From a virus, in IMG/VR virus record IMGVR_UViG_3300025120_000025, positions 1 to 64,000 of that record: a stretch of 64,000 nucleotides of DNA; one strand, written 5' to 3'. The translations under genes and the position numbers were made by a program. The notes under the pieces were generated by a model. It had not been told where the DNA came from. It was given only the letters and a program-made list of their open reading frames with translations, and made no database searches. Below are positions 1 through 64,000 of this stretch, piece by piece. How positions within the stretch are numbered: the stretch's first letter is position 1; every line of letters starts with the position of its first letter.

Positions 1-96
1 AAAAAGGGAACTTCTATTGGTAGACACCCTATAACATCTACAATGAATAAAAGTAAACGTAGAAGTTTTAAAAAATATATAGGACAAGGTAGATAG
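1..96 (+). CDS. 3' end of a small basic protein (partial)
   Basis: Frame 1 reads KKGTSIGRHPITSTMNKSKRRSFKKYIGQGR*, ending directly before the PAAR ATG; truncated by the window edge. Confidence 0.7.
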   Translation, partial: KKGTSIGRHPITSTMNKSKRRSFKKYIGQGR

Positions 97-393
97 ATGC
101 CAGAGGTAACTAGAGTTGGATTAGACAAACACGTTGGTCATGCAAGTCCAACTCCAAATCCATTTCATCAAACTGCATACTCAGATGGTTCGCCTAATGT
201 GTTTACGAATAGTGCGAAGACTACAAGAAAAGGTGATAAGACTAGTTGCGGTGATCCGGCAACCGGTTGTAGTTCTACAGTGTTTGTGAATAATAAAGGT
301 GTGCATAGAAAAGGTGATGCAACTGGTGGTCATGGATCGTGGGTTGCTAATAAGAGTGCTTCAGGTTCATCTAATGTATTCGCTGGCGGATAA
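97..393 (+). CDS. PAAR-type baseplate spike tip protein (gp5.4-like)
   Basis: 98 aa; repeated V(F)xN..xxRKGD units, His/Cys ligands, ends GSSNVFAGG; precedes gp25. Confidence 0.9.
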   Translation: MPEVTRVGLDKHVGHASPTPNPFHQTAYSDGSPNVFTNSAKTTRKGDKTSCGDPATGCSSTVFVNNKGVHRKGDATGGHGSWVANKSASGSSNVFAGG

Positions 394-397
394 GAGG

Positions 398-405
398 TAT
401 AAATA
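398..405 (+). promoter_or_regulatory. T4-type late promoter
   Basis: TATAAATA just upstream of gp25. Confidence 0.75.
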
Positions 406-410
406 CTAGT

Positions 411-815
411 ATGGCAACGACTGTAACAAGAAAAACTGCTGATTTTAGCGACTTAGACTTCAACTTTACTAGATTGAGTAGTACTAGTGATGTGGCGAAG
501 AAGACTGACGTAGAAGCAGTAAAGCAGTCAATGAAAGCACTAATACAAACAAATTATTTCGATAGACCTTTTCATCCAGAATTAGGTTGCTCTGTTGCAG
601 GATTATTATTTGAAAATAACACTCCGATGACACAAAGAAGTATTAGAAAGTCAGTCGAAGAAGTTATACAAAATCACGAACCTAGAGCAGAAATTACGCA
701 AGTCGATGTAACAGATGGTTCAGATAACAATGAATATAGAGTGAGAATTTATTTTTATGTAGTTAATCATACACAGCAAGAGGTATTCGAAACCTACTTG
801 ACAAGGACACGCTAA
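411..815 (+). CDS. gp25: baseplate wedge subunit gp25
   Basis: FSDLDFNF, AVKQS, RPFHPELG, HEPR motifs; synteny. Confidence 0.92.
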   Translation: MATTVTRKTADFSDLDFNFTRLSSTSDVAKKTDVEAVKQSMKALIQTNYFDRPFHPELGCSVAGLLFENNTPMTQRSIRKSVEEVIQNHEPRAEITQVDVTDGSDNNEYRVRIYFYVVNHTQQEVFETYLTRTR

Positions 816-2782
816 TGGCACAGACAACTAAAAGACTACGAGTTACAGAACTCGACTTTGATGAAATTAAAACAAATTTGAAAACTCATATGCAATCGCA
901 AGATGCTTTCAGAGATTATAACTTTGAAGGTTCTGCGATGAATACATTGCTAGACGTATTATCTTACAATACACACTATAATGCAATATATGGTAATATG
1001 GTAGCAAACGAGATGTTTCTTGATAGTGCCGTTAAGAGAGATAGTGTCGTTTCACTTGCCAAACATTTAGGATATACACCTCGCTCTTCAGTTTCATCTA
1101 CTGCTAGATTGAACGTAACAGTCAATTCACCTAGTGGTAGTCCTGCTACTTTGACTATGCCTAAGGGTACAGTCTTTAGAGCAAGAGTATCTGGAACTAA
1201 CTATCAATTTGTAAACTTATCAGCAACTACTATTACACCTACTGAAGGAGTTTATCAATTCACTAACTTAGATGTTAAAGAAGGAACACTTCTAAACTTA
1301 CAATATACTAAAGATAGTAATACTACATCTCAAAGATTTTTACTAGACGAACCAAATATTGATATCACTACATTAAAAGTAACAATTCAAACTAGCGTAA
1401 CTGATATAACACAAAACACATTTACTGAAGCAAGTAATATTTTAGATATTGGCGCACTAAGTAAAGTGTATTTCTTAGACGCAGTAGAGAGTGGTCACTA
1501 TGAAGTAACATTTGGTGATGATGTTCTAGGTCAAGCACTTGCAGATGGTAATATCGTAATCTTAGAGTATGTTGTATGTAATGAAGAGGATCCTAATGGT
1601 GCTTCAGATTTCACATTACAATCTGCAATTGGTGGTTCTACTAATGCTACAATAACTACAGTTATTAATGCACAGAATGGCGGTCCTAGAGAGACTTTAG
1701 AAAGTATTAAATTTAATGCTCCTAAGTATTACTCATCACAAAATCGTGCAGTTACCGCAGAAGACTTCAAAGTTATTCTACCTAAGTTATATAATAACGT
1801 AGATACTATGCAAGTGTGGGGCGGTGAAGATAATGATCCACCTGTTTATGGTAAAGTCTTTATGGCAATCAAACCTAAAACAGGAAAAACATTGACAACA
1901 TCTACAAAGAATGCTATTAAGTCAACTTATCTTGCAGGTAAAACAATGGTATCAATCACACCAGAAATTGTAGACGCTGGATATATCTGCATTCTACCTA
2001 CAATTAATGTATATTGGAATCCAAACATTACATCTGCATCTTCTACAGAGATAGCAACTAAAGTTCGTAATGTAGTTGAAACATATGCTCAGAACGACAT
2101 TAAGAATTTTGATAGTGTCTTCAGATATTCTCAGTTCGTGAATAGAATTGACCTTGCTGATCCTGGTATCGTTTCTAACGTCACAACGATTAGATGTGAG
2201 AGACACTTTGATGCCATTCTAAATCAAGAAAGTAAGTACACGTTAAATTTCTATAATCCATTATTCACTCAAGGTGCTGGTGCGCCTACTAACTTATCAT
2301 CAACTGGTTTCACTATCGCCGGCAGAACACAGACACTTTATCTAGATGATGATGGCGCTGGTAATATTCGTTCATATTATCTTGAAGAAGGTTCATCAAC
2401 AAAAGTTATTGTTAATGCAACGCAAGGTGCTATTGATTACGCCGCAGGAAAGATTATTATTGACCAACTAAATATCTCTAGTACAGTTGTTGATGGTGGT
2501 GAAGTTGAGATATTTGTAACACTTAACTCTAATGATATTGTGAGTGTTCGTGAAATTCTTCTTATGATTAATCCATTGACAGTTGTTGTAAATACAATCG
2601 TTGATAAAGTAGCAACTGGAGAATCCTCTGCAGGTGTTGAATATATTACTACATCAAGTAGTGAACTAAGTAAGACTGGAGGAACAGGTGCCGCAGGACA
2701 AACTTCTACTATATCAGTTGGTAGTGGTTCGTCTAGTTCATCAAGTTCTTCAGGAAGCGGTAGCAGTGGAAGCAGTTATTAA
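815..2782 (+). CDS. gp6: baseplate wedge subunit gp6
   Basis: ELDFDEIK, DYNFEGS, NEMFLDSA, QNRAVT motifs; Ser/Gly-rich C-terminal tail. Confidence 0.95.
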   Translation: MAQTTKRLRVTELDFDEIKTNLKTHMQSQDAFRDYNFEGSAMNTLLDVLSYNTHYNAIYGNMVANEMFLDSAVKRDSVVSLAKHLGYTPRSSVSSTARLNVTVNSPSGSPATLTMPKGTVFRARVSGTNYQFVNLSATTITPTEGVYQFTNLDVKEGTLLNLQYTKDSNTTSQRFLLDEPNIDITTLKVTIQTSVTDITQNTFTEASNILDIGALSKVYFLDAVESGHYEVTFGDDVLGQALADGNIVILEYVVCNEEDPNGASDFTLQSAIGGSTNATITTVINAQNGGPRETLESIKFNAPKYYSSQNRAVTAEDFKVILPKLYNNVDTMQVWGGEDNDPPVYGKVFMAIKPKTGKTLTTSTKNAIKSTYLAGKTMVSITPEIVDAGYICILPTINVYWNPNITSASSTEIATKVRNVVETYAQNDIKNFDSVFRYSQFVNRIDLADPGIVSNVTTIRCERHFDAILNQESKYTLNFYNPLFTQGAGAPTNLSSTGFTIAGRTQTLYLDDDGAGNIRSYYLEEGSSTKVIVNATQGAIDYAAGKIIIDQLNISSTVVDGGEVEIFVTLNSNDIVSVREILLMINPLTVVVNTIVDKVATGESSAGVEYITTSSSELSKTGGTGAAGQTSTISVGSGSSSSSSSSGSGSSGSSY

Positions 2783-5699: not shown

Positions 5700-7058
5700 A
5701 TGGCCGCAATCATTACCAACAAGTTCCGTATTCACAATGCCGAGCAATACATCGAAGCATTCAGTGAAAGTGCTGGAACAAAAATATATCTTTTCATCGG
5801 TAGACCACAATCGTGGACCGATGATACCTCTCCTCCTACTCCTGCAGACAATAACGACACAGCGTTTAATGCGTATGACGATATGGTAGCAATGAAGCGT
5901 GTGGCATCTACAGATATCACACACGCAGTAGTAAGAAGAGATTGGGTTTCAGGAACTACATATGACGAATACGCACATGACTATTCATCAACAAATACTG
6001 CAAACTCAGGAGCAACTAGTTTATTCGCCGCAACATTTTATGTGTTGACTGACGATTATAACGTATACAAAGTAATCCACAATGATGGAAATACTGCTAG
6101 TACAGTTAAACCGACTGGCACTTCAACTGGTTATATCACGACTGCAGACGGATACATTTGGAAATATATGTATACTGTATCTGCCGCTGATGCACTGAAG
6201 TTCTTGTCAACTGACTTTATGCCTATCAGATACATTGCTTCTGATCCAGGCGCTGGACAACCGTACAAAGCACAGTTCGATACTGCCGCTGCCGCTGTTG
6301 CTGGTCAAATCAAGCAGATTAAAATTACTAACGCTGGTTCTGGATACAGTTCTGCACCAACAATCACTATTACTGGTGATGGTGCTAGTGCAACTGCAAC
6401 AGCAACAGTCTCAGGTGGTAACATTACTGCAATCACTATTACTAATACTGGTTCTAATTATACTCAAGCGAGTATCACTGTATCAGGTGGTGGAGGTTCT
6501 TCTGGAGCAGTGAAAGCAATTATCTCGCCTCCAGGTGGTCACTCAAGTTCTGCAGTAGATGAACTAGGTGGTTTCTATGTTATGAATAATGTAAGACTAG
6601 AATATGCTGATGGTTCTGGAGACTTCCCTGTTTCTAACGACTATCGTAGAATTGGTCTTGTTCGTGATCCACTTAATCATGGAACTACAGTAGTATCAAC
6701 TGCAACAACTTTGTCTGCAACGAAATCACTAACACTTCAATCTGGTGGTCTATCTGGAACATTTGCAACTGACGAAACACTCACAGGTGGTTCTTCTAGT
6801 GCTTCTGCAAAAGTAATTGACTGGAATGCATCAACAAGAGTGCTAAGATATTATCAAGATATCAATACTGGATTTGTGGCATTCACAGGTTCTGAAACCG
6901 TGAGTGGTGGTACATCATCTGCATCTGGAACTATTTCAGCATTGAATAATCCAGAAGTCGCAGTAGACAGTGGTGATATTATGTACATAGAACATCGTAG
7001 ACCTATTAATCGTGCTTCGGATCAGATTGAAGACATTAAATTGGTTATTGAATTCTAG
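5700..7058 (+). CDS. gp8: baseplate wedge subunit gp8
   Basis: MAAIITNKFRI, YLFIGRPQSW, DGYIWKYMY, C-terminal QIEDIKLVIEF. Confidence 0.92.
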   Translation: MAAIITNKFRIHNAEQYIEAFSESAGTKIYLFIGRPQSWTDDTSPPTPADNNDTAFNAYDDMVAMKRVASTDITHAVVRRDWVSGTTYDEYAHDYSSTNTANSGATSLFAATFYVLTDDYNVYKVIHNDGNTASTVKPTGTSTGYITTADGYIWKYMYTVSAADALKFLSTDFMPIRYIASDPGAGQPYKAQFDTAAAAVAGQIKQIKITNAGSGYSSAPTITITGDGASATATATVSGGNITAITITNTGSNYTQASITVSGGGGSSGAVKAIISPPGGHSSSAVDELGGFYVMNNVRLEYADGSGDFPVSNDYRRIGLVRDPLNHGTTVVSTATTLSATKSLTLQSGGLSGTFATDETLTGGSSSASAKVIDWNASTRVLRYYQDINTGFVAFTGSETVSGGTSSASGTISALNNPEVAVDSGDIMYIEHRRPINRASDQIEDIKLVIEF

Positions 7059-7115: not shown

Positions 7116-10100
7116 ATGGCAGTTATAGACTTTAATGTAGACCCCTACTATGATGATTTTGAGGGAACTACTGGTGCAAAATCAAAGGACTTTCATCGTG
7201 TTCTCTTTCGACCTGGATTTCCAGTTCAGGCGAGAGAGTTAACTCAATTACAATCAATCTTACAAAATCAGATTGAAAAGCATGGGCGACACGTTTTCAA
7301 AGAAGGTTCTATGGTTATTCCAGGAGACCTTGCATATGATATGCAATACGACTTTATTAAAGTTCAGTCAACATTTAATGCACAAAACGTAGAAAGTTAC
7401 AGAGCAGACTTTGTAAATAAGATTGTTACAGGTTCTGAAAGTGGTGTTAAAGCGAGAGTTATTGGAACACTTGCGGCCACCTCGACTACTCCATTAACAC
7501 TATATGTAAAATATGAAGATAGTGGCACATCTAATGAGGCCATTGCTTTTTTAATAGGTGAAAATGTAACATCTCTGAATGCTGACAATACAACTGCTAA
7601 AAACGCTCTATTATCTACAAATCAAACTACAGAATTGACGGCATCTTTATTTACTACTGGTACCGTCAATTCTTCTAACAACCTCAGCGCCGCCGGTGCT
7701 TTACTAAACAAATTCGATAGGTCTGCCGTACTTGCCGCAGGCACAAGCGATACTGTGGGTAGAGGTTCTGCAATTCAAATTCAAGCAGGTGTTTATTTTA
7801 TTAATGGGTTCTTTGTACAAAATGACGCACAAAGTATACTACTTGATAATTATTCACCTTATCCTTCTTATCGTATCGGGTTTCAAGTTACTCAATCAAC
7901 TACAACACCTGAAGAAGATGCGACATTAAAAGATAATGCTCAAGGTTCATCTAACTATGCCGCTCCAGGCGCACACAGATATAAGATTACATTAACACTA
8001 GTTAAGAAAGAATTGACTGCAAGTGATGATGTAAACTTTGTCGAACTAACAAGAGTAGAAGACGGTCAGATTTCTAAGATGACCGACAAAGCAACTTATA
8101 ACTTTTTACAAGAAGAGTTTGCTAGAAGAACTTACGATGAAAGTGGCGACTATGAAGTAAAACCATTTAGATTAGATGTTCGTGAACACTTAGCATCTGG
8201 TTCAAATAGAGGCGTTTGGTCTTCTGCCGAAACAGGCGATGCGGCAAAACTTGCTCTAGGTGTAGAACCTGGTAAAGCATACGTTCAAGGTTATGAAGTT
8301 GAATCCCAAATAACAAAATTTATCAATACCCCTAAACCACGAACATTCAATAGTGTAGTTGATACTCCAATTCAAACAGATGTTGGTAACTTTGTTCTTG
8401 TAAAAAATCTTAAAGGTCTTCCTGATATTAATGATTTTCCAGAAGTTTTTATTTACGACAACTTCATTGCTGGTAATGGAGGTGGAGGTGCCGCCGCACC
8501 AATCGGTACTTGTAACATTCGTGGTATTCAATTACATGATGGTGACTTTACTGGAACTATCTCAGATGTAAAATATAAATTAGGCATCTTTGATATTCAA
8601 ATGAATGATGGTAAAGATTTTGCTAGAGATGCAAGAGCATTCGGAGATAATACTGATCCGGATAATGCGACATTCTCTTGTAATATCAATCCAAAACTTA
8701 TTACGCTTTCTGGTACTGTAACAACTACCGCAGACCCTACTGTAGTTGGCGTAGGTACTCTATTCTTATCTCAACTTAGAGCAGGCGATAGACTGTTCGT
8801 AAATGATGTTGATGTTGGTGAAGTCGCCGCAACAGGTACCTTTAACAATCTTAGTATTGAATTAGGAGGAAATGCTCTTTCTAATATTGCTGGCGGTACG
8901 GTAAAACGTATGTCTGCAGAACTTCTAAGACCTCATCAGAAAATTCTAGTGTTTCCAACTGGATACTTTAGAACAAGAAAAATTCGTGGTAGTGATGCAC
9001 AGAATCCAGATAATGTATTATCTTCAACTTATACAGTAAGAAGACAACTTACAACTCAAAATATTACTGCTGGACAATTAACTTTCACAGTTCCATCTAA
9101 CGAAAGTTTTGCATCTGTATCTAACTTACAAAACTTTGTATTAATAGCGAGTTCTGCAGGTACAGGTACTCTTGCTACTGCTAACGTAGGCGCAGTCATA
9201 CCACTTGTCGCCTCAGACTTAGCATTAACAAACTCTAATAGAACACTTACAATCAGTAATGTCAATAGTAAGACACTACCTAGTGGTGCTAGTCCTGTTA
9301 ATGGTGTTACTTGTACTCTAGTTGCTTCTGTTACAATCACAGGTGCCGCTGGAGCAGAGAAACAAAAAGCACTACAGTCTAACCAAACAGTACAGATAAC
9401 AACTCAAGGCGCCGTACAAAAAACAGAAATAACTCTCGGTAAAGCAGATGGTTACGCATTGAAGTCTGTTAAAATGGCGGCAGACTTTAGTACAAATGCA
9501 ACTGCAACTTCTCAAGATATTACAGATAGATACGAATTTGATAATGGTCAAAGAGATGCATTTTACGACTTAGCAAGAATTAGTCTGAAACCTGGTCGTC
9601 CAGCACCAACTGGTCGTATTCTAGTAACATTCGATTACTTCACTCATGCTGGTGGTGATTATTTCTCAGTAGACAGTTACGATGGTATTGTTTCTTATGA
9701 AAGTATTCCATCATATACTTCACCTGATGGCGATGGTGATACTTACGATTTGAGAGATTGTCTAGACTTTAGACCAAGAATTGATGACGCTGGTGTAAAC
9801 TTTACATCTTCAGGCGCATCTGCAACTGAACTACCTATGGTAGGTACAAACTTCAATGCAGACTTCTCATACTTCTTAGGACGTATTGATAAGATTGCAA
9901 TGAACTTTGATGGAAGTCTTATAAGAATTCCTGGTGTTCCTGATATTAATCCTAAACCACCACTCGACCTTGGTAAAGCAATGACACTTTTTGAAGTGAC
10001 AATGAAACCTTATGTTGTCAATACTTCAGAAGTCTTATCTAAAAAAATTAAAAACAGACGCTATACAATGCGTGACATTGGTCGTCTTGAAACAAGAATT

Positions 10101-21097: not shown

Positions 21098-21643
21098 ATG
21101 GCATTAACAAGAGTAACAAAACATATCATACATGGGTCACTATTAGTCCAGTTCAAGTATACAGAGAATACTGGTGATTTTGATATCAGTTCTTCACAAA
21201 GTACGTTCACTGAAATAAACAGTAAAAATATTGTGATGACGCCACAGTATGCGGATTCTATCTTAGAAGATAGTGCTTCTATGACTGTTAAGATGCAACA
21301 TAGTTCTGATAATGTAACAGATACAATAACAACTGCTTTGTTTGTAAATGGTAATAATGAATTTGAAGCGATTGATTTAATAGGGTTTCAACCATATGGT
21401 AATGGTCACTCTCATTCAGGTGGTCGTAACGATAGAACAGCACCAACAAGAAGACACGGTCATGTAAGAAATATGGCAGCGGCCGCTGGATTTACTCATG
21501 CATTTACTCCTGCATCAACAAATGCTCAGGATCAAGATATTCGATGTAAAAACTCTGCTACCAGAAATATTAGAATTCGTGACTTCTTCTTTATTAGTAA
21601 AGAAATTTCTATTGGTCTCGCAACTTCTGGTTCACAGAACTAG
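21098..21643 (+). CDS. putative fibre-tip/adhesin protein, paralogue D
   Basis: Same scaffold; loop PYGNGHSHSGGRNDRTAPTRRHGHV. Confidence 0.6.
   Translation: MALTRVTKHIIHGSLLVQFKYTENTGDFDISSSQSTFTEINSKNIVMTPQYADSILEDSASMTVKMQHSSDNVTDTITTALFVNGNNEFEAIDLIGFQPYGNGHSHSGGRNDRTAPTRRHGHVRNMAAAAGFTHAFTPASTNAQDQDIRCKNSATRNIRIRDFFFISKEISIGLATSGSQN
21390..21467 (+). repeat. 78-bp direct repeat, copy 1
   Basis: 74/78 identical to 21972..22049. Confidence 0.95.
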
Positions 21644-21679: not shown

Positions 21680-22249
21680 ATGCCGTTACACAAAATAACG
21701 AAACAGTCAGTAAAAGGTTGTCTATTAGTACAGTTTAAATATGAAGAAAATGAAGGCGAATGGTCACACGCTTCTGGTTCAAATGTTTTTGCGACAGTTA
21801 ATAATAAAAACATTACTCTTACCCCACAATATCCAACTTCTATTATTGAATTTAGTTGTTCGTTCACCATTCGAGGATCGCAATCATCACAGAACTCATC
21901 TCACACATTTGAATCAAGATTATTAGCAAACGGACAAGAAGAATATCTCTCGATTGATGTTGGTGGTTATGAACCATATGGTAATAATCACTCTCATACA
22001 GGTGGTCGTAACGATAGAACTGCACCAACAAGAAGACACGGTCATGTAACTAATAGTGCATACAGTGCAGGATTTACTCATGCATTTATTCCTAGAGCAA
22101 CAAATGCAATTATATTAGAGGTACAAGCAAGAAGTACTACCGACATGGATTTTATTGTTGCTGATTTGTTTATGATTGCAAAAGAAATTGGAATACCTGA
22201 AGATAGGGTGGCAGGCGGTTCTGGAAGTATTACACATGATGGTGTATAA
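21680..22249 (+). CDS. putative fibre-tip/adhesin protein, paralogue E
   Basis: Same scaffold; loop PYGNNHSHTGGRNDRTAPTRRHGHV. Confidence 0.6.
   Translation: MPLHKITKQSVKGCLLVQFKYEENEGEWSHASGSNVFATVNNKNITLTPQYPTSIIEFSCSFTIRGSQSSQNSSHTFESRLLANGQEEYLSIDVGGYEPYGNNHSHTGGRNDRTAPTRRHGHVTNSAYSAGFTHAFIPRATNAIILEVQARSTTDMDFIVADLFMIAKEIGIPEDRVAGGSGSITHDGV
21972..22049 (+). repeat. 78-bp direct repeat, copy 2
   Basis: 74/78 identical to 21390..21467. Confidence 0.95.
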
Positions 22250-47386: not shown

Positions 47387-47940
47387 TACTACCACTAACA
47401 AATCCACATGACGTTAAGAACTTAGGCGCACCGCCTGAATTTGATTTTCTAAACCCTATTGTTGAACCTGTAGAACTTGCAGATAGACTGTGGGAGAACA
47501 TGAAACACTATAATGGTGTAGGACTATCTGCTACGCAAGTAGGTATTCATACTAAAGTGTTTGTGATGGGTAGAGATGATTTTCGTATGAATGTTTTTAA
47601 TCCTAAAGTTATTCAGATATCACCTGAACTACAAGCATTCAAAGAAGGTTGTTTAACATGGCCATTCTTAATGTTATCAATTAGAAGACCTGTAGATTGC
47701 ACTATAACATACTACAATGAACACAACGAAGCAAAGAACATCAAACTACAAGATATGTCTGCTAGAGTATTCTTACATGAGTATGACCATATGTTAGGCA
47801 TTGATTTCACACAGAGAGCATCTAAACTAGCACTAGATATTGGTATGAAGAAAAGAGATAAGATGTTAAAAAAATTGGAGCGATCCGGAAAGTTAGAGAA
47901 AGCAGATGGAGACACTTACTCAATACCACAGACTTCCTAA
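47383..47940 (+). CDS. def: peptide deformylase
   Basis: GVGLSATQ, EGCL and HEYDH motifs. Confidence 0.93.
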   Translation: MILPLTNPHDVKNLGAPPEFDFLNPIVEPVELADRLWENMKHYNGVGLSATQVGIHTKVFVMGRDDFRMNVFNPKVIQISPELQAFKEGCLTWPFLMLSIRRPVDCTITYYNEHNEAKNIKLQDMSARVFLHEYDHMLGIDFTQRASKLALDIGMKKRDKMLKKLERSGKLEKADGDTYSIPQTS

Positions 47941-48442
47941 AGAAGACGAAATCGTATCACAAGGTTTAGAACTGTTTAGTTGGGATACTGCTATTGAAAA
48001 TTTTGAAGCATCTGTAGCAGAACGAAAAAAGTATTCTGACTTTGTTCAACGTGGTGTGAGAGTTGTGGGTATTGAGGATGAAGATGATGAAACAAAGTTT
48101 AATATGTTACCTACACTTGTTTCTCATCATGCAGAACTAATACCAGTCGTTCAAGAAATGAGAAAAGTGTTAGAATTTAAACACAATGTCAAAGACCCAC
48201 ATAGAGTTAATTGTCATATGTTTATATCACTGGTATCACACTCACAATGCTTTGACTGGCACAGTGATTATGATAACACATACATCTGGCAGATAAAGGG
48301 TAGAACAAAATGGTACACTGGTGAAGATGATGCCATACTTGAACCAAATGATATGATATATATTCCACACGGAAAGATGCACAGATTAGAAATTATAGAA
48401 CCAAGAATATCAGTAAGTTTCAGCATTGAGAGAAAGGTATAA
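47906..48442 (+). CDS. JmjC/cupin-like Fe(II) oxygenase
   Basis: WHSD..WQIKG..W..LEPNDMIYIP.G.MH..RISVS. Confidence 0.75.
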   Translation: METLTQYHRLPKEDEIVSQGLELFSWDTAIENFEASVAERKKYSDFVQRGVRVVGIEDEDDETKFNMLPTLVSHHAELIPVVQEMRKVLEFKHNVKDPHRVNCHMFISLVSHSQCFDWHSDYDNTYIWQIKGRTKWYTGEDDAILEPNDMIYIPHGKMHRLEIIEPRISVSFSIERKV

Positions 48443-48443
48443 T

Positions 48444-49577
48444 ATGGAAGAAGCAATGAAAGATTGGCAGAAAGGATATCAGTTAGATTATCTAAAAGAG
48501 ATTACTGCCGAGTACGATAATTATAATAAATACACCGATAGTCCTTTTGCACAGTTCAAGAAGAATAACGTAGCAGACTTTTTAGATAAAGGTACTCTAC
48601 GCAAAGCAGGCGATGCTTGGATTAATATTAAAGAAGCAAAAGTTCGTTCTAAGATTACGATGCATGGAACTGGACCTATCATCGGTTATAAAGAACCTGG
48701 TGATGTTATAATTGAAAATATTTCTCAGTACACAGAGAATGTAAAAAACTATATCGGAGCATATTCTAATAGAAGTTGCTGGTTGTTTGGTTGGGCAGAA
48801 GATGAAAAGTTTATTCATTTTGCTGAAGATTGTGGGTTTGAGTATGTTGGTAGTAAAATAACGACATTTGCAGAGATTTATAGCGTATACTATCGTAATT
48901 CTAGTATATCCTTCGAGGATCGTTCACACACGCTCATAGACGGCGCTGAGGCGGTTAACATCAAGAAGTGTACATTTGATAACATCGAAACATCGTTTAT
49001 CGTCACTGAACTAGAAAATATCCAACAAGAATACACAAATCACTACTCAAATTACAATAAGAAAGGATCATGGTCAGCAATATCTCTCAGAGGTTACAGA
49101 CCAGATGCATCTTTTATTGCAAAACCAGTAGAGATGAATAAGAAATGGAAAGCAGATAACGATACATGGGAAGAATGGCAATGTGAAGATACCCCATTGC
49201 GTGAAAAGTTTCCTTATGTAAATGAACTTATTTCGAAGATACCTACTGATAGGGTCGAACGGATTAGATTTATGTCTCTCGTACCAGGAGGTGGAGAATT
49301 GAGTAGACATACTGACCAAGTCGATCCTGACTTAGGTGTTGCAGACGGAAGAATTATGAGACTACATATTCCAGTAATTACAAATCCTAAGATGGAGTTT
49401 ACTTCATGGAATATGCATGGTCAGAAACATAATGTAAATATGAAAGAAGGTGAACTGTGGTACCTCGATATTCGAAAACCACACATGGCAGTGAATAATG
49501 GTGATGATATCAGAATTCATTTAGTAGTGGATGTAGAAGCAAATGATAAATGCAGACGATTATTTAGCGTTAGTTGA
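48444..49577 (+). CDS. fusion of GNAT-like N-domain and Asp/Asn/Pro-hydroxylase-type 2OG-Fe(II) domain
   Basis: C-domain RHTD..RLHIPVITNP..GELWYLD..PH..RIHLVVD; N-domain WL..WAED..F...CGF..VG resembles GNAT motif B (weak); ATG at 48444. Confidence 0.7.
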   Translation: MEEAMKDWQKGYQLDYLKEITAEYDNYNKYTDSPFAQFKKNNVADFLDKGTLRKAGDAWINIKEAKVRSKITMHGTGPIIGYKEPGDVIIENISQYTENVKNYIGAYSNRSCWLFGWAEDEKFIHFAEDCGFEYVGSKITTFAEIYSVYYRNSSISFEDRSHTLIDGAEAVNIKKCTFDNIETSFIVTELENIQQEYTNHYSNYNKKGSWSAISLRGYRPDASFIAKPVEMNKKWKADNDTWEEWQCEDTPLREKFPYVNELISKIPTDRVERIRFMSLVPGGGELSRHTDQVDPDLGVADGRIMRLHIPVITNPKMEFTSWNMHGQKHNVNMKEGELWYLDIRKPHMAVNNGDDIRIHLVVDVEANDKCRRLFSVS

Positions 49578-50310
49578 AGATTGGGTCGACCCTTATGATG
49601 CACCCGTTATTGAGATGCATGATGACATTCATGTTGTTCGTGACGATTTGCTTCCTGCTGGTAGTAAGATTAGGTTCATCGACAAACTCATTAGAGATAC
49701 CGAATGCGAAGAATGGGTATTTGGAGGAAGCAACAAAGTTGGTTGGGGTCCTATTTCTTTAGCGTATGTTTGTAAAAAATATAATAAGAATTCAACTTGC
49801 TTTTGGGCGGCACGAAAAGAACCAACATGGCATCAAGAAAAATATCTTGAATACGGAGGTAATATTGAATGGGTGAAGATGGGAATGTTAAATGTTACTC
49901 TGTCAAAAGCAGAGCATTATCGCAGAGAGAGTCCGAAGACCCGAAAGACGTTGCCTTTAGGACTAGAACACGATTGGGTGCTAGGAAGTATAGTGAAAGT
50001 ATCGCAGTCGCTACCTCTAGTGCCAGACGTAATATGGACAGTAGGATCAAGCGGAACTCTGAACCGAGGGTTGCAACTTGCATTCCCAGAGTCCGAAGTT
50101 CATGTGATACAGACGGGTCATAAACTTAGTGAGAGACAGATTGGTAGAGCAATCTTACATGAAGTACCTTATAAGTTTGATAAACCAGTAAAAGAGGAAG
50201 AAGCACCACCTTTTCCTTCTGCGCCTGAATATGATGCGAAAGCATGGAAAGTGATAAAAGAAAATATGAACAATAGTAAAACTAATTTATTTTGGAATGT
50301 AGCGGCATGA
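49543..50310 (+). CDS. PLP-dependent enzyme (fold type II; ACC deaminase/cysteine synthase-like)
   Basis: VVRDDLL..GSKIR (PLP Lys), VGSSGT loop, YDAKAW, LFWNV. Confidence 0.8.
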   Translation: MINADDYLALVEDWVDPYDAPVIEMHDDIHVVRDDLLPAGSKIRFIDKLIRDTECEEWVFGGSNKVGWGPISLAYVCKKYNKNSTCFWAARKEPTWHQEKYLEYGGNIEWVKMGMLNVTLSKAEHYRRESPKTRKTLPLGLEHDWVLGSIVKVSQSLPLVPDVIWTVGSSGTLNRGLQLAFPESEVHVIQTGHKLSERQIGRAILHEVPYKFDKPVKEEEAPPFPSAPEYDAKAWKVIKENMNNSKTNLFWNVAA

Positions 50311-50855
50311 GAAAGCAAATCGATTATGTAGATGATTTGTTTACTGATGAGTTTATTCAAGAAGTATCAACTAAGTATCATACAAATTTATTTGAATATG
50401 GCAACGTATCTAATAATCCTAATGATGCAATCTTTTGGTCATCTAGACGTTTGAATGATAATTCACCGATTACAGATTGTTGGCATCAAAAGAAAATACT
50501 TGATGTTATATCTGACTATTATAAATTTAAAACTTTCAAAGTAGACAATCAAAATATCTATATCAATGGTCAGACATATAAGTTAGATGGTTCAATGCAT
50601 ATCGATAGTGGTCATAGAACTGATCCTGATGCACACATGACAATCTTGTATATGGTAAACTGGCAAGATGCAGGCATACAAGGTTTTGAAACAAATATGG
50701 GTATTGTTCCATTCAAGGCAGGTAGAGTTGTGATTTTCAACTCAATAATGTCACATAGAGGACTATCTACTGAAAGCGTGAATAATCTAAGAATGACATT
50801 AACTTGGAAAAGTTGCGAAATAGTACTTGACAAAACTAGTCCTTTAGTGTTATAA
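50307..50855 (+). CDS. 2OG-Fe(II) oxygenase
   Basis: ATGA overlap with the upstream stop; NGQT..MHID..GRVVIF....HRG..RMT. Confidence 0.8.
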   Translation: MRKQIDYVDDLFTDEFIQEVSTKYHTNLFEYGNVSNNPNDAIFWSSRRLNDNSPITDCWHQKKILDVISDYYKFKTFKVDNQNIYINGQTYKLDGSMHIDSGHRTDPDAHMTILYMVNWQDAGIQGFETNMGIVPFKAGRVVIFNSIMSHRGLSTESVNNLRMTLTWKSCEIVLDKTSPLVL

Positions 50856-50856
50856 T
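50827..50856 (+). promoter_or_regulatory. sigma70-type early promoter
   Basis: AAATAGTAC-TTGACA-18 bp-TATAAT with TGn. Confidence 0.7.
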
Positions 50857-51082
50857 GAAAACTTATATACACGTTAATCAACATAAGATTAGAGCAAACA
50901 AAAAACATGGTACCAATGAACCTGTCATCACTATCAAAAAAGGTAGAACGAACACATATTGTCATGCAGTTAAAATACATGGCGACAGTGTAGTGAGATA
51001 TGGTGGTAGCGAAAAACCTATTCTCTCTTGCGGTGCAAGAGTAGTAATAGAAACTGACAATGAAGTAGAGGTTATTGAATGA
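50855..51082 (+). CDS. conserved small hypothetical protein
   Basis: IHVNQH.IR.N.K..PVIT.K..LSCGARV.IET; coupled on both sides. Confidence 0.7.
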   Translation: MKTYIHVNQHKIRANKKHGTNEPVITIKKGRTNTYCHAVKIHGDSVVRYGGSEKPILSCGARVVIETDNEVEVIE

Positions 51083-52635
51083 AGCATTTTTACGAGAGAA
51101 ATAGTTATCTATTAGAACACGAAGTCAATAAGACATTCGAAGAAGTTCTATGGATGTCCGATGAAGATTTTAGAACATGGTTGCGTGATATGCGTAGAGA
51201 AGTCGTTTATTCATGGGATACTCTCGGTCTACCCCCTAGAGTTGGTTGGTCAGAAGATAAGATTATTGACCAGTTTAATAAGATGTCTAGTTTCAACGTA
51301 AAAGACTTTGAATGCTTTAATGAAGAAACTAATGACACAGATGTTATTAGAAATACTAGTGTTATAGGTAATGCCGCCAATCAGTTCTTTCCTACAATGA
51401 TGAAGACTAAGATTGTGTATAATGATATAAGTAAAGCAAAGAGCATCTACGACCATTTTGTAGACGAAGACTTATTTCAAAAGGTATACACATATGGACA
51501 TAGACATTTCAAGAGAGATAGTTTTTATCACTATTCTAATCCTGTCAAGTTGGATGATGTACTAGATTTCGAAAATCAAAAGTACAAAGTAAAATCTGGC
51601 GTAGACTTTATTAACTGGTTTGAGAAAGTAGGAAGACAATACGATACACACGACTATTGGTTGAAACCTGATAAAGAAGAAGAGTATACAGGTTATGATG
51701 ATAAACTTAGAGGTGTTAATTGGGCATCTTTAACTAGAGAAGAAATTGAGAAATTAGATATTCCTGAGAACTGTAAAGTAAACATGAAAGATGATATGAA
51801 TGTATATCAAATTATGTTTTTTAAAAAAGGTCAAAAGATTTTTCCTCTAGGTTTCAAACCATTTCGTATTTCATGGTGTCAATATGCCGTGAACTTTCCA
51901 CCATTAACTGCAAAGTATCTCTATGAAAAATATACCGAACACTTTAAAGAACAGTCTACTATTCGTATTTGGGATCCTAGTGCTGGTTGGGGTGGTCGTA
52001 TTCTCGGTGCTATGTCTGTTCGTGATGACCGCTCTATACATTATATTGGTACTGATCCCAACACTGACCACACTGTTGTATTGGAAGATGGTACCAAATC
52101 AACAAAGTATGAAGAACTAGCGAGATTTTTCAATGAAAAAACATACAGAGGCAACGGACTCTTCCCACACACAAACACATACGAGATACATCAAGTCGGT
52201 TCAGAGACCTTTGAGTGTGAGGAAAACTCTCTCGACATGGTATTCACTTCCCCACCATATTTCGCCAAAGAGGCGTACAGTGATGACGAAGAACAATCAT
52301 ACAAGAAGTTCGACCAATACGAAACGTGGGTAGAAGGTTTTCTGAGACCTACATTAGAGAATGCTTACAAGTATCTTAAAAGCGACAGATACTTGCTCTG
52401 GAACATTGCTGATGCTAAATTTGGTAACACTATGCTTCCACTAGAATCCGATAGCATAAATATATGTAAGAACCTAGGGTTTGAATATGTGACTATGTTG
52501 AAAATGGCACTTGCTCAAATGCCTGGCGGTAATAGAGTAGATGAGGAGACAGGTAAACCACGAGCAAAGAATTTTTGTAAAGTGAATGGTATCTGGTTAA
52601 AATATGAACCAATCTTTGTTTTTAGAAAGTCGTAA
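51079..52635 (+). CDS. SAM-dependent DNA amino-methyltransferase-like protein (N4C/N6A class)
   Basis: DPSAGWGGR (SAM motif I) and FTSPPYF (motif IV); long N-terminal extension. Confidence 0.8.
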   Translation: MKHFYERNSYLLEHEVNKTFEEVLWMSDEDFRTWLRDMRREVVYSWDTLGLPPRVGWSEDKIIDQFNKMSSFNVKDFECFNEETNDTDVIRNTSVIGNAANQFFPTMMKTKIVYNDISKAKSIYDHFVDEDLFQKVYTYGHRHFKRDSFYHYSNPVKLDDVLDFENQKYKVKSGVDFINWFEKVGRQYDTHDYWLKPDKEEEYTGYDDKLRGVNWASLTREEIEKLDIPENCKVNMKDDMNVYQIMFFKKGQKIFPLGFKPFRISWCQYAVNFPPLTAKYLYEKYTEHFKEQSTIRIWDPSAGWGGRILGAMSVRDDRSIHYIGTDPNTDHTVVLEDGTKSTKYEELARFFNEKTYRGNGLFPHTNTYEIHQVGSETFECEENSLDMVFTSPPYFAKEAYSDDEEQSYKKFDQYETWVEGFLRPTLENAYKYLKSDRYLLWNIADAKFGNTMLPLESDSINICKNLGFEYVTMLKMALAQMPGGNRVDEETGKPRAKNFCKVNGIWLKYEPIFVFRKS

Positions 52636-53284
52636 TCTTTTTGTAAACCCTCCAGTTGATTTTGAAGATTGGGGTAATTTCGATTATGATAAAGCGTTTG
52701 GCATTGACAAGTATTGTTACAATGCATACAGGCACTTTATCTTACCTTATCTAACAGACCCAACTAATCAAACTATTGTTGATATTAACACCGGTAAAGG
52801 TTGTGGTATCGCTGGACTCAAGAGAGAGTTTGGTTTTAAAAAGTGTATCGGATTTACAGGTTCAACTCAATTACTACATCACTGCAAAGATATATGGAAT
52901 GAAAAAGGTCTATCATTCTATAAAGACTTCATCTTGTCTAAGCAAGGTAAAGCAGACTTTCTATTTTCATATGAAGCATTCGAAGATTATGATAATAAGA
53001 GTGCATTACTACTTAGACTATCACAAGCACTAAATGAAGACGGAATTTTAGTTATCATACAATCAACTTTCAATGATTATGAATATCACAGTTATGAGAA
53101 TATTCTAGAGAATGTACATGGACTTAAAAAATTATCATCTCAAGATATATCTGCCCATGTACTACAAGGAATCAAACAATTTGAACACCACAACGATGGT
53201 TCGATGTCTATTATGCATTCAAGATTTAGTAAAAACTTAACGAGACATGAGTATAAAATTATGGCAAGTGTATTTCAGAGATGA
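52604..53284 (+). CDS. class I SAM-dependent methyltransferase-like protein
   Basis: IVDINTGKG.G, ADFLFSYEAF and L...LNEDGILVI (degenerate motifs). Confidence 0.6.
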   Translation: MNQSLFLESRNLFVNPPVDFEDWGNFDYDKAFGIDKYCYNAYRHFILPYLTDPTNQTIVDINTGKGCGIAGLKREFGFKKCIGFTGSTQLLHHCKDIWNEKGLSFYKDFILSKQGKADFLFSYEAFEDYDNKSALLLRLSQALNEDGILVIIQSTFNDYEYHSYENILENVHGLKKLSSQDISAHVLQGIKQFEHHNDGSMSIMHSRFSKNLTRHEYKIMASVFQR

Positions 53285-53787
53285 CAACAGTTTCAGTATT
53301 TGAAAATTTTCTATCATACGATGATTTATTTAATGTGAAAGAACTATCGAATGAAATCTATTATAGTCCAGACGCTTGTAAAAGTACTAATGCTGGTTGG
53401 ACTAAAGCAGTAATAGGTAATAGTTTTCCTGTTGTTTGTTGTAAGATAGAAGATGAAAAGTTATTAGAAGTTCTACAGAAAAAGATAGATGAAACTGCAA
53501 ATGAGTATGAGATAAAATCTGCAAGTTTTTTCTATTGGACAGAATTCAGTTATATACCTTGGCACGATGATGCAGGTCACGATGCGGCAATGACAATATA
53601 CTTATCCGACCACGATGAAAATGATGGTGGATATTTCATGTATAAAAGACAAGAAGAGATTGTAGCAATACCACCAGTAATGAATAGAGCAATACTTCAA
53701 GTAGAAGGCGTACCACATTCGACCACTGCATTGAATTCTAGGTCACCTATACGAAAAACAATTCAAATATTTCTTCAAAAAAAGTAA
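53281..53787 (+). CDS. prolyl-4-hydroxylase-like 2OG-Fe(II) oxygenase
   Basis: IPWHDD..TIYL..GGYF..P..NRA..PH.TT..RKTIQ. Confidence 0.85.
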   Translation: MTTVSVFENFLSYDDLFNVKELSNEIYYSPDACKSTNAGWTKAVIGNSFPVVCCKIEDEKLLEVLQKKIDETANEYEIKSASFFYWTEFSYIPWHDDAGHDAAMTIYLSDHDENDGGYFMYKRQEEIVAIPPVMNRAILQVEGVPHSTTALNSRSPIRKTIQIFLQKK

Positions 53788-61438: not shown

Positions 61439-61455
61439 TATTACCGACATTGAGA

Positions 61456-61486: not shown

Positions 61487-61491
61487 ATGTA

Positions 61492-61548
61492 GCACGATGC
61501 CTATGGTAGGGTCGTGTTTTATAAATCAGTCTTGCTTAACAAGGAGGC
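61492..61548 (+). promoter_or_regulatory. ROSE-like RNA thermometer in the hsp20 5' UTR
   Basis: 5' hairpin 61492-61517 plus GUCUUGCUU-AAC-AAGGAGGC hairpin pairing UUGCU with the SD, with a bulged G. Confidence 0.7.
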
Positions 61549-61552
61549 AATT

Positions 61553-62008
61553 ATGACTAACCTTACACAATTAAGGTCGGCGCTTAGTGCGTTTGACCAT
61601 AATCTTCTAACACCATATGCAGTAGGATTCGACCGCACCTTTGATAGGTTGTGGGACTACGCACAACATCAAGCACAATCTACAGGTTTTCCGCCTTACA
61701 ATATTGTAAAGGATAAAGAGAACTCTTACAAGTATCATATCAGTATGGCACTTGCAGGTTTTTCGAAGAAGGACGTTGATGTTCAATTCGAAGATGGATG
61801 TCTGACTATCAAATCTGTAAAGCATGATAAAGAAGAAGAGAACGACCATCTATGGAAAGGAATTTCTAATAGACAGTTTACTCGTAAATTTACACTTGCT
61901 GATGAAGTAGTGGTGAATGGTGCAGAACTTAAAGACGGTATGTTAAATATCGAACTTGAACGTATTGTACCAGAAGAGAAGAAACCTAGAACTATTGAAG
62001 TTAAATAG
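61553..62008 (+). CDS. hsp20: small heat shock protein (Hsp20/IbpA-like)
   Basis: GFD, FPPYNI, ALAGF, GIS.R.F.R.F.L, DGML.I.L...PEE; ATG after AAGGAGG. Confidence 0.95.
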   Translation: MTNLTQLRSALSAFDHNLLTPYAVGFDRTFDRLWDYAQHQAQSTGFPPYNIVKDKENSYKYHISMALAGFSKKDVDVQFEDGCLTIKSVKHDKEEENDHLWKGISNRQFTRKFTLADEVVVNGAELKDGMLNIELERIVPEEKKPRTIEVK

Positions 62009-62014
62009 TATCTA

Positions 62015-62042
62015 CTTCCTGAGCATGAAGATAAACTGCTCA
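62015..62042 (+). other. compact H-type pseudoknot candidate
   Basis: S1 CTTC/GAAG, S2 TGAGCA/TGCTCA; loops of 1, 1 and 6 nt. Confidence 0.5.
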
Positions 62043-62063
62043 CTTTATAATTAGGAGTATATA

Positions 62064-62288
62064 ATGGCGACAAAAAAAGCGACACCAGTGACAGATAAGT
62101 TACAAGCAATGAATGTTCCAATCATTCGTATTAACGACAAAATCACACAACTTGAAAATGAATTGCGTGAAAGACAAACAATGTTACAACAGTATCGAAA
62201 AGCAATCACACAACTAGAAGCAGAAGCAAATGCTATTCTAGGATCGATACAAACTTGTAAAGAATTGACAGAGGTACCAAATGAGTAA
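62064..62288 (+). CDS. small coiled-coil hypothetical protein
   Basis: AGGAG SD; heptad pattern. Confidence 0.7.
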   Translation: MATKKATPVTDKLQAMNVPIIRINDKITQLENELRERQTMLQQYRKAITQLEAEANAILGSIQTCKELTEVPNE

Positions 62289-62580
62289 TGTAGTAGTGAT
62301 TAAGATGATGAACGGTGAAGAGATTATCACTAAAGTTCACAAAGAAGATGATGAAACAATCCAGTGTGAAAAACCTGCTATCATTATGTTATCCCCAAAT
62401 CAAAATGGCAAAGGTGTTCAAGTCCAAATGGGTCCGTATTCAGCATTCACAGATAAACCGATTGCAGTAAACAAAACAAGTATCATGTATGTTGCTGAAC
62501 CAAACACAGAAATCTTAAATAGTTATAACAAGAACTTTGGAAGTGGACTTATAGTTCCAAATCAAACTATTCTTGGTTAA
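62281..62580 (+). CDS. conserved hypothetical protein (Sm-like)
   Basis: VVIKMMNGEEII..P..PY..Y...FGSGLIVP; precedes gp43. Confidence 0.75.
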   Translation: MSNVVVIKMMNGEEIITKVHKEDDETIQCEKPAIIMLSPNQNGKGVQVQMGPYSAFTDKPIAVNKTSIMYVAEPNTEILNSYNKNFGSGLIVPNQTILG

Positions 62581-62601
62581 CACTATTACCGCACATAGGG
62601 G

Positions 62602-62630
62602 TTGACTTTATGTGTGTTTTGTTATATAAT
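62602..62630 (+). promoter_or_regulatory. sigma70-type promoter for gp43
   Basis: TTGACT-17 bp-TATAAT. Confidence 0.8.
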
Positions 62631-62656
62631 GAGTTTTTATTATTGAGGTACATCTA

Positions 62657-64000
62657 TTGAAATTTTATACTAATGTTCAACAATGGGGCAACAACTTACT
62701 TGTAAGAGGTGTCAACGATGATGGTCAACGTGTCATGCAAAGATACAAAGACTTCTCGCCTACATTGTTTCTAAAGTCACAGAAACCTACGCAGTTCAAA
62801 ACTATTGAGGGTGACTATGTAGAAGATTTCAAACCTGGTTCTATTAAAGAAGCACGACAGTTTCTTGAAGATTACAAAGATGTATCAAACTTCAAAGTAT
62901 ATGGTCAAACTCAATTTCTCTATCAATGGATTTCAGACAACTTCTATGAGCAAGAAGAGATTGCTTTCGATACAAAACAAATATCTGTAATCTCTCTAGA
63001 TATTGAGACTGAAACAGAGTATGGTTTCCCAAACATTCAGACTGCCAATGAAGGCATTCTGCTTATCACAATTCAAGACAATCTAACAAAGAAGTTGATT
63101 ACATGGGGTACGAGAGAGTATCACGGTAAGAACACTGAAGTCGAGTATCGATATTTCGATAGCGAAGCAAAGATGCTGAAAGACTTTATTGCCTGGTTGA
63201 ATGAATTCAAACCTGATGTTATCACTGGTTGGAATACTCGCTTCTTTGATATTCCGTATGTTGTCAATCGTGTCGAGAGAGTACTAGGCGAAGAACAAGT
63301 TCGTTATATCTCGCCTTGGAAGATTGTCAAAAGCGGTAAGATGACTGTCAGAGGTCAAGAGCAACAGTACTATGATATCTTTGGTATCGCTGGTATTGAC
63401 TATCTTGAATTGTTTCGTAAGTATCGTGGTATTGGTTATGAAAGTTTTGCACTTGCACATATTGCAAATGTAGAACTCGGTTCTGAGAAATTAGACCACT
63501 CTGAGTATCAGAACTTCAAAGACTTCTATACTCAAGATTGGACTAAGTTTGTAGACTATAACATTCGTGACGTTGAATTAGTATCTCAACTTGAAGATAA
63601 ACTTGGTCTGATTGAATTACAAATGACGATGGCGTATGACTTTCGTGTGAACTATGAAGATGTATTCTCTCAAGTTCGATGTTGGGATATGCTGATTTAC
63701 AATTATCTAAGACGAAGAGGCGTTGTAATTCCTCCTAAGTCTTTTCATAATAAAGACACTGCTTACGCTGGTGCTTATGTAAAAGACCCTATTGTGGGTC
63801 AACATGATTGGGTTATGTCATTCGATTTGAATTCACTATATCCACACTTGATTATGCAATACAACATATCTCCTGACACTATTACTAATGAAAGACTAGA
63901 TGTTAATGTTGATGACTTGTTAGATAAGCAGTTTGACAACTCAGTATTGAAGCAAAAGAATTTATCAATGGCGGCGAATGGTCAATGTTTTCGTGCAGAT
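62657..64000 (+). CDS. gp43: family B DNA polymerase gp43 (partial; absent from ORF track)
   Basis: TTG start after GAGGT, reading MKFYTNVQQWGNNLLVRG; ExoI LDIET, ExoII GWN..FFDIPY, ExoIII YNIRDV, motif A SFDLNSLYPH. Confidence 0.96.
   Translation, partial: MKFYTNVQQWGNNLLVRGVNDDGQRVMQRYKDFSPTLFLKSQKPTQFKTIEGDYVEDFKPGSIKEARQFLEDYKDVSNFKVYGQTQFLYQWISDNFYEQEEIAFDTKQISVISLDIETETEYGFPNIQTANEGILLITIQDNLTKKLITWGTREYHGKNTEVEYRYFDSEAKMLKDFIAWLNEFKPDVITGWNTRFFDIPYVVNRVERVLGEEQVRYISPWKIVKSGKMTVRGQEQQYYDIFGIAGIDYLELFRKYRGIGYESFALAHIANVELGSEKLDHSEYQNFKDFYTQDWTKFVDYNIRDVELVSQLEDKLGLIELQMTMAYDFRVNYEDVFSQVRCWDMLIYNYLRRRGVVIPPKSFHNKDTAYAGAYVKDPIVGQHDWVMSFDLNSLYPHLIMQYNISPDTITNERLDVNVDDLLDKQFDNSVLKQKNLSMAANGQCFRAD

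Follow-up and report, generated by a model that had tools for sequence, protein, structure and literature searches.

The stretch of DNA studied here (the window) comprises positions 1 to 64,000 of the IMG/VR virus record IMGVR_UViG_3300025120_000025, the opening 64 kb of a virus contig that measures 102,947 bp and is estimated to be 57% complete. Judged by its gene content, the contig is an uncultured marine T4-like myophage with a genome layout like that of the SAR11 phage HTVC008M. We found that about 20 words of 4-6 bp have been purged from both strands throughout the window (1..64000) and onward to the contig end at 102,947, and that the purge is waived for three of them, GATC, GANTC and GCGC, when, on one or both strands, a further G stands directly 5' of the outer G of the site. 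The pattern suggests that host restriction systems drove the purge and that the phage probably places a mark of its own on the GG/CC step, by which flanked sites would be exempted.

Restriction-type words are purged at the DNA level

An earlier note on the window, drawn from a manual reading, had reported that AGCT, AGCC and GGCT were missing. Direct counting bore this out: all three occur 0 times in the window, as do AGATC, GATCT and TGATCA, so that AGCT, AGATC and TGATCA are nowhere near their expected frequencies. For the whole contig, we compared word counts with a null of 200 synonymous-codon shuffles among positions of the same amino acid, so that all proteins and the overall codon usage are preserved. 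The words that are completely absent against this null include AGCT (0 observed vs a null mean of 252), AGCC plus GGCT (0 vs 244), CGCG (0 vs 57), CGWCG (0 vs 63), RCATGY (0 vs 49), AACGTT (0 vs 33), TCATGA (0 vs 25), CTTAAG (0 vs 19), GWGCWC (0 vs 37), GCAAGC/GCTTGC (0 vs 19) and AGATCC (0 vs 42). GCWGC (2 vs 115) and YACGTR (1 vs 64) also belong to the purged set of about 20, together with GACGTC, TGCGCA and the unflanked forms of GATC, GANTC and GCGC, and CAATTG is reduced as well (8 vs 52). No shuffle approached the observed counts for AGCT, AGCC plus GGCT, unflanked GATC (HGATCD), AGATCC or GCWGC. In sharp contrast, control words stay near the null, namely CTAG (331 vs 317), TGCA (687 vs 682), GAATTC (44 vs 42), ATGCAT (52 vs 50), GGWCC (49 vs 53) and CCWGG (73 vs 89), and CTGCAG is likewise normal. 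The absence of CGCG and of about a dozen 5- and 6-mers had been missed by the earlier note.

The purge is readable in the choice of synonymous codons, much as that note had described. None of the 24 Met-Ala starts uses GCT. Asp-Pro is written GAC-CCN in 10/10 cases after A, for example as GAC-CCC at 7136..7144 on the plus strand, which avoids AGATCC (likewise at ~28105, ~36441 and ~63785), and as GAT-CCN in 19/20 cases after T, 9/11 after C and 3/3 after G. Ala-Ala is GCC-GCN 45 times and GCG-GCN 30 times, with GCT-GCN and GCA-GCN once each. The two GCWGC sites left in the contig are the two exceptions pointed out before: GCTGC at 6288..6292 lies inside GCTGCC and is CC-flanked, and GCAGC at 21476..21480 lies inside GGCAGC and is GG-flanked.

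Neither orientation of the asymmetric words AGCC/GGCT, AGATC/GATCT and GCAAGC/GCTTGC occurs, even with 122 of the 126 called open reading frames (ORFs) lying on the plus strand, which indicates that the purge acts on duplex DNA and not on mRNA. It thus operates at the DNA level through synonymous codon choice, and it varies between lineages. We take the purged words to fit classical type II restriction specificities, of the kind that REBASE lists. Since the purge is DNA-level and synonymous, falls on such specificities and differs in its word set among close relatives, selection by restriction systems, as the earlier note proposed, is well supported.

Two further words deserve mention here. 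CCCWG/CWGGG is ~10-fold depleted in the whole contig (10 vs ~102 expected from the codon shuffle), CCWGG being normal, and in Pelagibacter phage Mosig CAGGG/CCCTG is depleted (3 vs 52); we know of no enzyme with a CCCWG/CWGGG specificity. The non-palindromic GCAAGC/GCTTGC is absent from this contig and from one close relative, L081, and is normal in other members of the clade; an enzyme of type IIS or type III may have left this gap.

GATC, GANTC and GCGC are retained next to a GG/CC step

All 84 GATC sites in the contig read GGATC on at least one strand. Among the 55 in the window, the contexts are TGATCC (21), GGATCA (15), CGATCC (10), GGATCG (6) and GGATCC (3, at 1588..1593, 18135 and 51972), so the earlier observation that GATC occurs only in TGATCC, CGATCC, GGATCC or their reverse complements holds at 55/55 sites. 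The same rule, overlooked at that time, governs GANTC, with 96/100 contig sites reading GGANTC on at least one strand, and GCGC, with 65/65 reading GGCGC. The four GANTC exceptions are TGAATCA at 21911..21915, which has no GG/CC flank, and the sites at 38744, 39014 and contig position 70003.

Against the codon-shuffle null, the unflanked forms are gone, with HGATCD at 0 vs 208, HGANTCD at 4 vs 203 and HGCGCD at 0 vs 40. In contrast, the flanked forms persist: GGATC occurs 88 times vs 124, GGANTC 100 vs 75 and GGCGC 76 vs 37. Because the shortfall of GGATC corresponds to the separately purged AGATCC class, flanked sites are not selected against and one flank suffices. The base 5' of the GG is unconstrained. 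Additionally, an unbiased scan for 5' neighbours that rescue purged cores returned four hits, three of which are G before G and one A before ACGTG. Six of the eight surviving CAATTG sites are CC/GG-flanked, which is suggestive only.

GGCC had been listed in the earlier note as present. It does occur, at 5702..5705, 7538, 27950 and elsewhere (10 sites in the window, 12 in the contig), but not freely (12 vs 62), and its protection is doubtful. The survivors read YGGCCR in 11 of the 12 cases, with AGGCC at 1 vs 36 expected and GGGCC at 0 vs 15, and GGCC is absent from several relatives.

The flank rule in relatives and cultured phages

We gathered 80 viral contigs through the methyltransferase-like protein encoded at 51079 (described below) and took their expectations from di- and trinucleotide Markov models instead of codon shuffles. 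The close clade consists of L004-L012, L049, L075, L081 and the 126-kb relative G001, at ~75-86% nucleotide identity (G001 ~75%). Its members have in common zero counts of AGCT, AGCC/GGCT, unflanked GATC and GANTC, GCWGC, AACGTT, YACGTR, CTTAAG, GWGCWC and TGCGCA; CGWCG is zero or close to it, and flanked GATC and GANTC are normal. They vary in CGCG, GCGC, RCATGY, TCATGA, GCAAGC, CAATTG and GTTAAC; for example, CGCG, HGCGCD, RCATGY, TCATGA and GCAAGC are zero in our contig and L081 and normal in L004, L005, L006 and L012. Constancy of the core together with turnover at the periphery is the signature that shifting host restriction repertoires would produce. Among more distant lineages, the GATC survivors of L030, L036 and L039 (9, 7 and 11, respectively) are all G-flanked. 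G-flanking also applies to GTAC in L040 (12/12 survivors, vs ~44% expected, as judged from the GTAC flanks of our contig) and L015 (3/3). GATC is zero, flanked copies included, in L015, L016 and L037, and L043 has six GATC survivors that are not G-flanked.

Cultured phages offer a direct comparison, for which we used both-strand counts and trinucleotide Markov expectations. In HTVC008M, whose genome is complete and whose host is SAR11, HGATCD is 0 vs 622 and HGANTCD 0 vs 515, and G-flanked sites make up 83/83 of GATC and 43/43 of GANTC. In sharp contrast, the podophages HTVC011P and HTVC019P, obtained from the SAR11 strain that also yielded HTVC008M, lack GATC altogether (0 vs 172 and 0 vs 201), including the flanked GGATC (0 vs 24 and 0 vs 28), and they lack GGANTC as well (0 vs 26 and 0 vs 27). 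Since the podophages purge the flanked sites that HTVC008M spares, the enzymes that they meet do act on such sites, and the exemption is therefore brought by the myophage and not by the host enzymes. The suggestion in the earlier note that the tolerated contexts are protected by a phage-made modification gains support in this way, although indirectly.

We also considered whether the flank rule extends across the Kyanoviridae, and rejected this. The cyanomyophages Syn9, P-SSM2, S-CRM01 and S-CAM22 avoid neither GATC nor GANTC, and the rule is therefore specific to the lineage described here and not to the whole family. In Syn9, P-SSM2 and S-CAM22, but not S-CRM01, CCGG is essentially absent (0-2 vs 72-155 expected). 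RGCY (AGCT, AGCC) is 3- to 5-fold depleted in Syn9, P-SSM2 and S-CAM22, and AGGCC is also low; rescue of GTAC by a G flank was not seen in Syn9. Pressure of the RGCY type thus seems general for marine myophages, in agreement with a report that RGCY is the commonest N4-methylcytosine (m4C) motif in marine viral genomes (PMC8919816).

Every cultured SAR11 phage that we examined (HTVC008M, Mosig, HTVC010P, HTVC011P and HTVC019P) is heavily purged, for example of TCGA, CGCG, CASTG, AGTACT and TCTAGA in HTVC008M, of ACGT in Mosig, and of GATC, GANTC, GCGC and GGCC in the podophages. Our clade shares with HTVC008M and Mosig the purge of GATC, CGCG, CTTAAG, TCATGA, GTGCAC, TGCGCA and AGGCC. With HTVC008M it further shares the purge of GANTC and the G-flank rule for GATC and GANTC, whereas Mosig does not purge GANTC. 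Unlike both cultured phages, our clade has fully purged AGCT, RGCY, GCWGC and CGWCG and carries a 518-amino-acid (aa) SPPY methyltransferase; the GC content is 36% in our contig vs 33%. Of more than 100 SAR11 genomes, a single one has been reported to encode a restriction-modification system (PMC7029224). SAR11 thus presents a paradox, with almost no reported restriction systems and yet phages that are heavily purged in every case examined and rank among the most purged genomes.

The methyltransferase at 51079 and other candidate mark makers

The earlier note had pointed to a methyltransferase gene at 51079 as a possible source of protection. Its product, METHYLTRANSFERASE, is a 518-aa amino-methyltransferase encoded at 51079..52635 on the plus strand, with motif I (DPSAGWGGR) near residue 299 and motif IV (TSPPYF) near residue 390. 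An SPPY motif IV is typical of N4-cytosine enzymes. The protein scores 31.8 bits against Pfam N6_N4_Mtase (PF01555), above the cut-off of 26.7, with a match confined to profile positions 2-106 of 221. The gene is the sole DNA-methyltransferase-like gene found in the contig and five relatives. The protein is not truncated: more than 2,500 full-length homologues come from aquatic metagenomes, and among those listed the lengths are ~513-550 aa and none is from a cultured phage. The protein thus resembles PF01555 amino-methyltransferases such as TTHA0409 (PDB 2zie) in motif I and the SPPY motif IV, but it differs from them in the half-profile match, in a conserved 270-residue N-terminal extension, and in its nearest solved folds. 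For its AlphaFold model, which is confident (pLDDT 85), these folds are the tRNA N2-methylguanosine (m2G) methyltransferases Trm11, TrmN and Trm14 (Z 14.7-15.4), with generic methyltransferases at Z ~13, and among solved DNA methylases the closest in sequence matches at E=0.11. Judged from the modelled fold, an N2-guanine target is conceivable.

The distribution of the gene does not follow that of the exemption. In HTVC008M and Mosig, PF01555 genes are lacking and the 51079-family profile finds nothing at E<=1, yet both phages show the exemption, whereas L015, L016 and L037 carry a family gene and contain no GATC in any context. The gene is therefore neither necessary nor sufficient across the group, and a general causal role in the tolerance is not supported. 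Within the present clade, the enzyme may nevertheless act as the mark maker. A second ORF with a methyltransferase fold follows at 52604..53284 on the plus strand. We rejected a frameshift that would fuse it to the 51079 ORF, since over 100 homologues of the latter stop at this length too (513-550 aa). The second ORF shares its first 32 nucleotides with the end of the 51079 ORF and matches Methyltransf_23 weakly; no homologue was found in HTVC008M, Mosig or the four cyanomyophages. The idea that it is a CmoA-like synthase of carboxy-S-adenosylmethionine (Cx-SAM) found no support, its best PDB match being a sterol methyltransferase at E ~1e-3.

Both methyltransferase ORFs belong to a run of overlapping genes at 47906-53787, together with a cupin/JmjC-like gene, an Asp/Arg-hydroxylase-domain gene and two 2-oxoglutarate (2OG)-Fe(II) oxygenases. 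In Mosig, genes with similar annotation (Asp/Arg hydroxylase, N-acetyltransferase, methylase) adjoin the tail-fibre genes. When searched against Mosig with tblastn, the genes of 47906-53787 gave no match, and the peptide deformylase just upstream (47383-47940) did.

We also searched for other types of modifying enzyme. A search for tRNA-guanine transglycosylase (TGT)/DpdA genes (PF01702) came back empty for the contig (57% complete), for five relatives of up to 70% completeness and for HTVC008M and Mosig, whose genomes are complete; it found one in 14/14 control genomes. Neither the contig nor G001, HTVC008M or Mosig matched the C5-methyltransferase family (PF00145) at E<=1. The ORFs that our phage group shares with HTVC008M and Mosig, and that are absent from the four cyanomyophages, encode ribosomal protein S21, lysozyme, helix-turn-helix, coiled-coil and Sm-like proteins and small unknown proteins, none of which looks DNA-modifying.

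Proposed mechanism and alternatives

The loss of about 20 target words of 4-6 bp by way of synonymous codons is shown, and its well-supported cause is long-term selection by many host restriction-modification systems. We propose that a GATC, GANTC or GCGC site, and in relatives a GTAC site, would be tolerated in the forms GGATC, GGANTC, GGCGC or the GTAC equivalent because the phage itself marks the GG/CC step. Possible positions of the mark are the C of 5'-CC, the G of 5'-GG and, in the case of GATC and GANTC alone, the A of GGA, and its chemistry could accordingly be an N4- or C5-substituted C, a modified G or a modified A. Restriction sites modified on a single strand are typically either nicked or resistant, and a one-strand mark would suffice to prevent enzymes of the GATC, GANTC, GCGC and GTAC types from making a double-strand cut. 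Enzymes with presumed targets RGCY, RGATCY, GCWGC, GWGCWC and CGCG would ignore the mark or cut half-marked sites, which would leave these words purged in every context; RGCY and RGATCY enzymes would account for the loss of AGCC and AGATCC. In this scheme, the 51079 SPPY amino-methyltransferase is only a candidate mark maker. Sequencing of marine myoviruses by the single-molecule real-time (SMRT) method has revealed the m4C motifs RGCY, CCNGG, CCWGG, GGWCC and GGHCC, most of them containing CC (PMC8919816), which is compatible with a GG/CC mark and not specific to it.

As a whole, a host-restriction purge combined with a phage-made GG/CC mark that exempts flanked sites is the account that we judge to be probably right, and a number of points weigh against it. 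GG-flanked GCWGC (2 vs 27), GWGCWC (0 vs 25) and CCGCG (0 vs 20) are still purged, AGATCC is absent despite its CC flank, and AGCC is also absent though half-flanked. GGCC, which would be expected to carry the mark on both strands, is 5-fold depleted and survives almost solely as YGGCCR. Most of the GCGC rule can be derived from the purges of CGCG, TGCGCA and AGCGCT; only the AGCGCA class (0 vs 14.6, with GGCGCA at 46 vs 17) requires an enzyme acting at the level of GCGC. Mosig retains GATC solely as GGATCC (19 sites), and the podophage control presupposes that both types of phage meet the same enzymes. Finally, no gene among those common to our clade, HTVC008M and Mosig looks DNA-modifying, and neither of the two enzyme families sought above, TGT/DpdA and C5-methyltransferase, was found in the contig, relatives or cultured phages searched.

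Two alternatives keep a phage-made mark and differ in its maker or its position. It is unlikely, in our view, that the 51079 methyltransferase makes the mark, acting as an N4-cytosine methylase whose target would be very short and of the CC type. Its standing as the only such gene in the contig and five relatives, its PF01555 score above the cut-off, its SPPY motif, its wide occurrence in aquatic metagenomes and the frequency of m4C at CC-containing motifs in marine myovirus genomes (PMC8919816) speak for this, but HTVC008M and Mosig are exempt without the gene, L015, L016 and L037 have the gene and zero GATC, the six survivors in L043 are not G-flanked, and the fold stands slightly closer to the tRNA enzymes (Z ~15) than to generic methyltransferases, with only an E=0.11 match to a DNA methylase. 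A mark on the adenine of GGA, whether N6-methyladenine (m6A) or a Mom-like adduct, instead of on the G:C pair appears quite unlikely. The strongest exemptions, those of GATC and GANTC, do both read GGA...TCC, and the adenine within the site is the usual position of protection. Yet such a mark cannot explain the retention of GGCGC described above, the retention of GGTAC in L040 and L015 or the CC/GG flanks of six of the eight CAATTG survivors. No adenine-methylase family was seen in the contig, the targeted searches having covered PF01555, PF00145 and TGT only.

The other two alternatives dispense with the mark or with host restriction. Host nucleases that themselves fail at sites with a preceding G would produce a one-flank rule without any modification if a homodimeric enzyme, blocked on the strand with G at -1, merely nicked half-flanked sites. 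We regard this as very unlikely, since podophages of the same SAR11 strain fully purge flanked GATC and GANTC, the rule covers at least four unrelated words whose avoidance was gained and lost independently among relatives, and low-GC marine alphaproteobacterial loci show neither GATC depletion nor a flank bias. It is also conceivable, but very improbable, that the purge guards against sequence-specific nucleases by which this phage or its competitors degrade host DNA. The single restriction-modification system reported among more than 100 SAR11 genomes (PMC7029224), set beside the heavy purging of all SAR11 phages examined, would fit such an origin. About 20 specificities would be required, however, and no such set of nucleases was seen in the ORFs scanned; moreover, the purged words fit type II specificities and vary among close relatives as host repertoires do.

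Relation to known systems and implications

Restriction-site avoidance in phage genomes is classical, as in the GATC-free Twort-like phages of Staphylococcus. The present phage resembles such cases in the loss of type II words from both strands through synonymous codons, with a set that depends on the lineage. It differs from them in that some 20 words are affected at once, many with counts of exactly zero, and in that the purge is waived for GATC, GANTC and GCGC sites touching GG/CC. Site avoidance is textbook knowledge, which does not hold for an all-or-none exemption that hinges on a single adjacent base, and our literature search found no paper describing a flank-conditional exemption. GANTC has been found depleted in half of pelagiphages (PMC9516812).

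Modifications with short motifs are known from other phages, including the m4C of marine myoviruses mentioned above, the GC-specific 5-carboxymethylcytosine made by CmoX of Synechococcus phage S-B43 (PMC12783734) and, reportedly, preQ0 at two motifs in phage CAjan (PMC7544227). Like these, the proposed mark would be placed by the phage in a context of 2-3 bp and would shield many restriction sites. It would differ from them in that GG/CC is not among the contexts described and that no CmoX-type C5 transferase or DpdA/TGT was found. We put forward, tentatively and as a real possibility, that abundant SAR11-type ocean myophages carry an undescribed context-specific GG/CC mark, the product of an enzyme so far not classed as DNA-modifying (in this clade possibly the 51079 SPPY methyltransferase with a 2-bp target). 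The mark would shield every restriction site touching such a step so that only the unshielded copies need purging.

If true, a hidden phage DNA modification could be read from plain sequence, and a new short-context mark would be predicted in some of the ocean's most abundant viruses. The paradox of SAR11 means either that a large restriction repertoire is concealed in wild SAR11 populations or that their phages encounter other nucleases. The list of purged words is also a fingerprint, which could help to assign uncultured phages to host populations.

Identity and likely host of the phage

The contig (GC 36%) encodes T4-like baseplate, sheath, portal and major capsid proteins and homologues of UvsX, gp41 and gp61. 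It also encodes RNase H, ribonucleotide reductase, many 2OG-Fe(II) oxygenases, peptide deformylase, a CobS-like ATPase and a carbamoyltransferase. Its ORFs at 0.4-65 kb are collinear with 31-99 kb of HTVC008M, with ~45-70% amino-acid identity, and its major capsid protein is 66-68% identical to a cultured counterpart of the pelagimyophage type (Kyanoviridae). Among cultured phages, the top nucleotide match is the capsid gene of Mosig (77%); only 46 of the 126 contig ORFs have a match in Mosig. The contig sequence is present in marine and seawater metagenomes from 13 studies.

No tRNA gene was found in the contig and thus no hint of the host from this source. A homologue of ribosomal protein S21 is encoded in the 126-kb relative at 110223-110477 (L094:10226-10420, minus strand), and HTVC008M and Mosig likewise encode an S21 gene. 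For the S21 proteins of these three phages, the top 80 matches among cellular proteins come without exception from Alphaproteobacteria, which makes an alphaproteobacterial host of the SAR11 type likely. Scanning genomes with the S21 alignment likewise matched only Alphaproteobacteria, with no named SAR11 genome among them, and a scan of host genomes with a phage porin gave no match. The overlap of the purged set with that of SAR11 phages provides a further hint in the same direction.

Two other genes stand out. At 43154-44626 on the plus strand, between a late sigma-factor-like gene and gp47/gp46-like genes, lies a gene for a flavin-dependent protein of the tryptophan-halogenase family (490 aa, Pfam E=1e-89), which is not among the ORFs that match both HTVC008M and Mosig. 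Beyond the window, at contig positions 71357-74236 (L001:7357-10236), a 959-aa protein begins with a weak nicotinamide-nucleotide adenylyltransferase-like domain at its N-terminus and continues with sequence that has no Pfam match.

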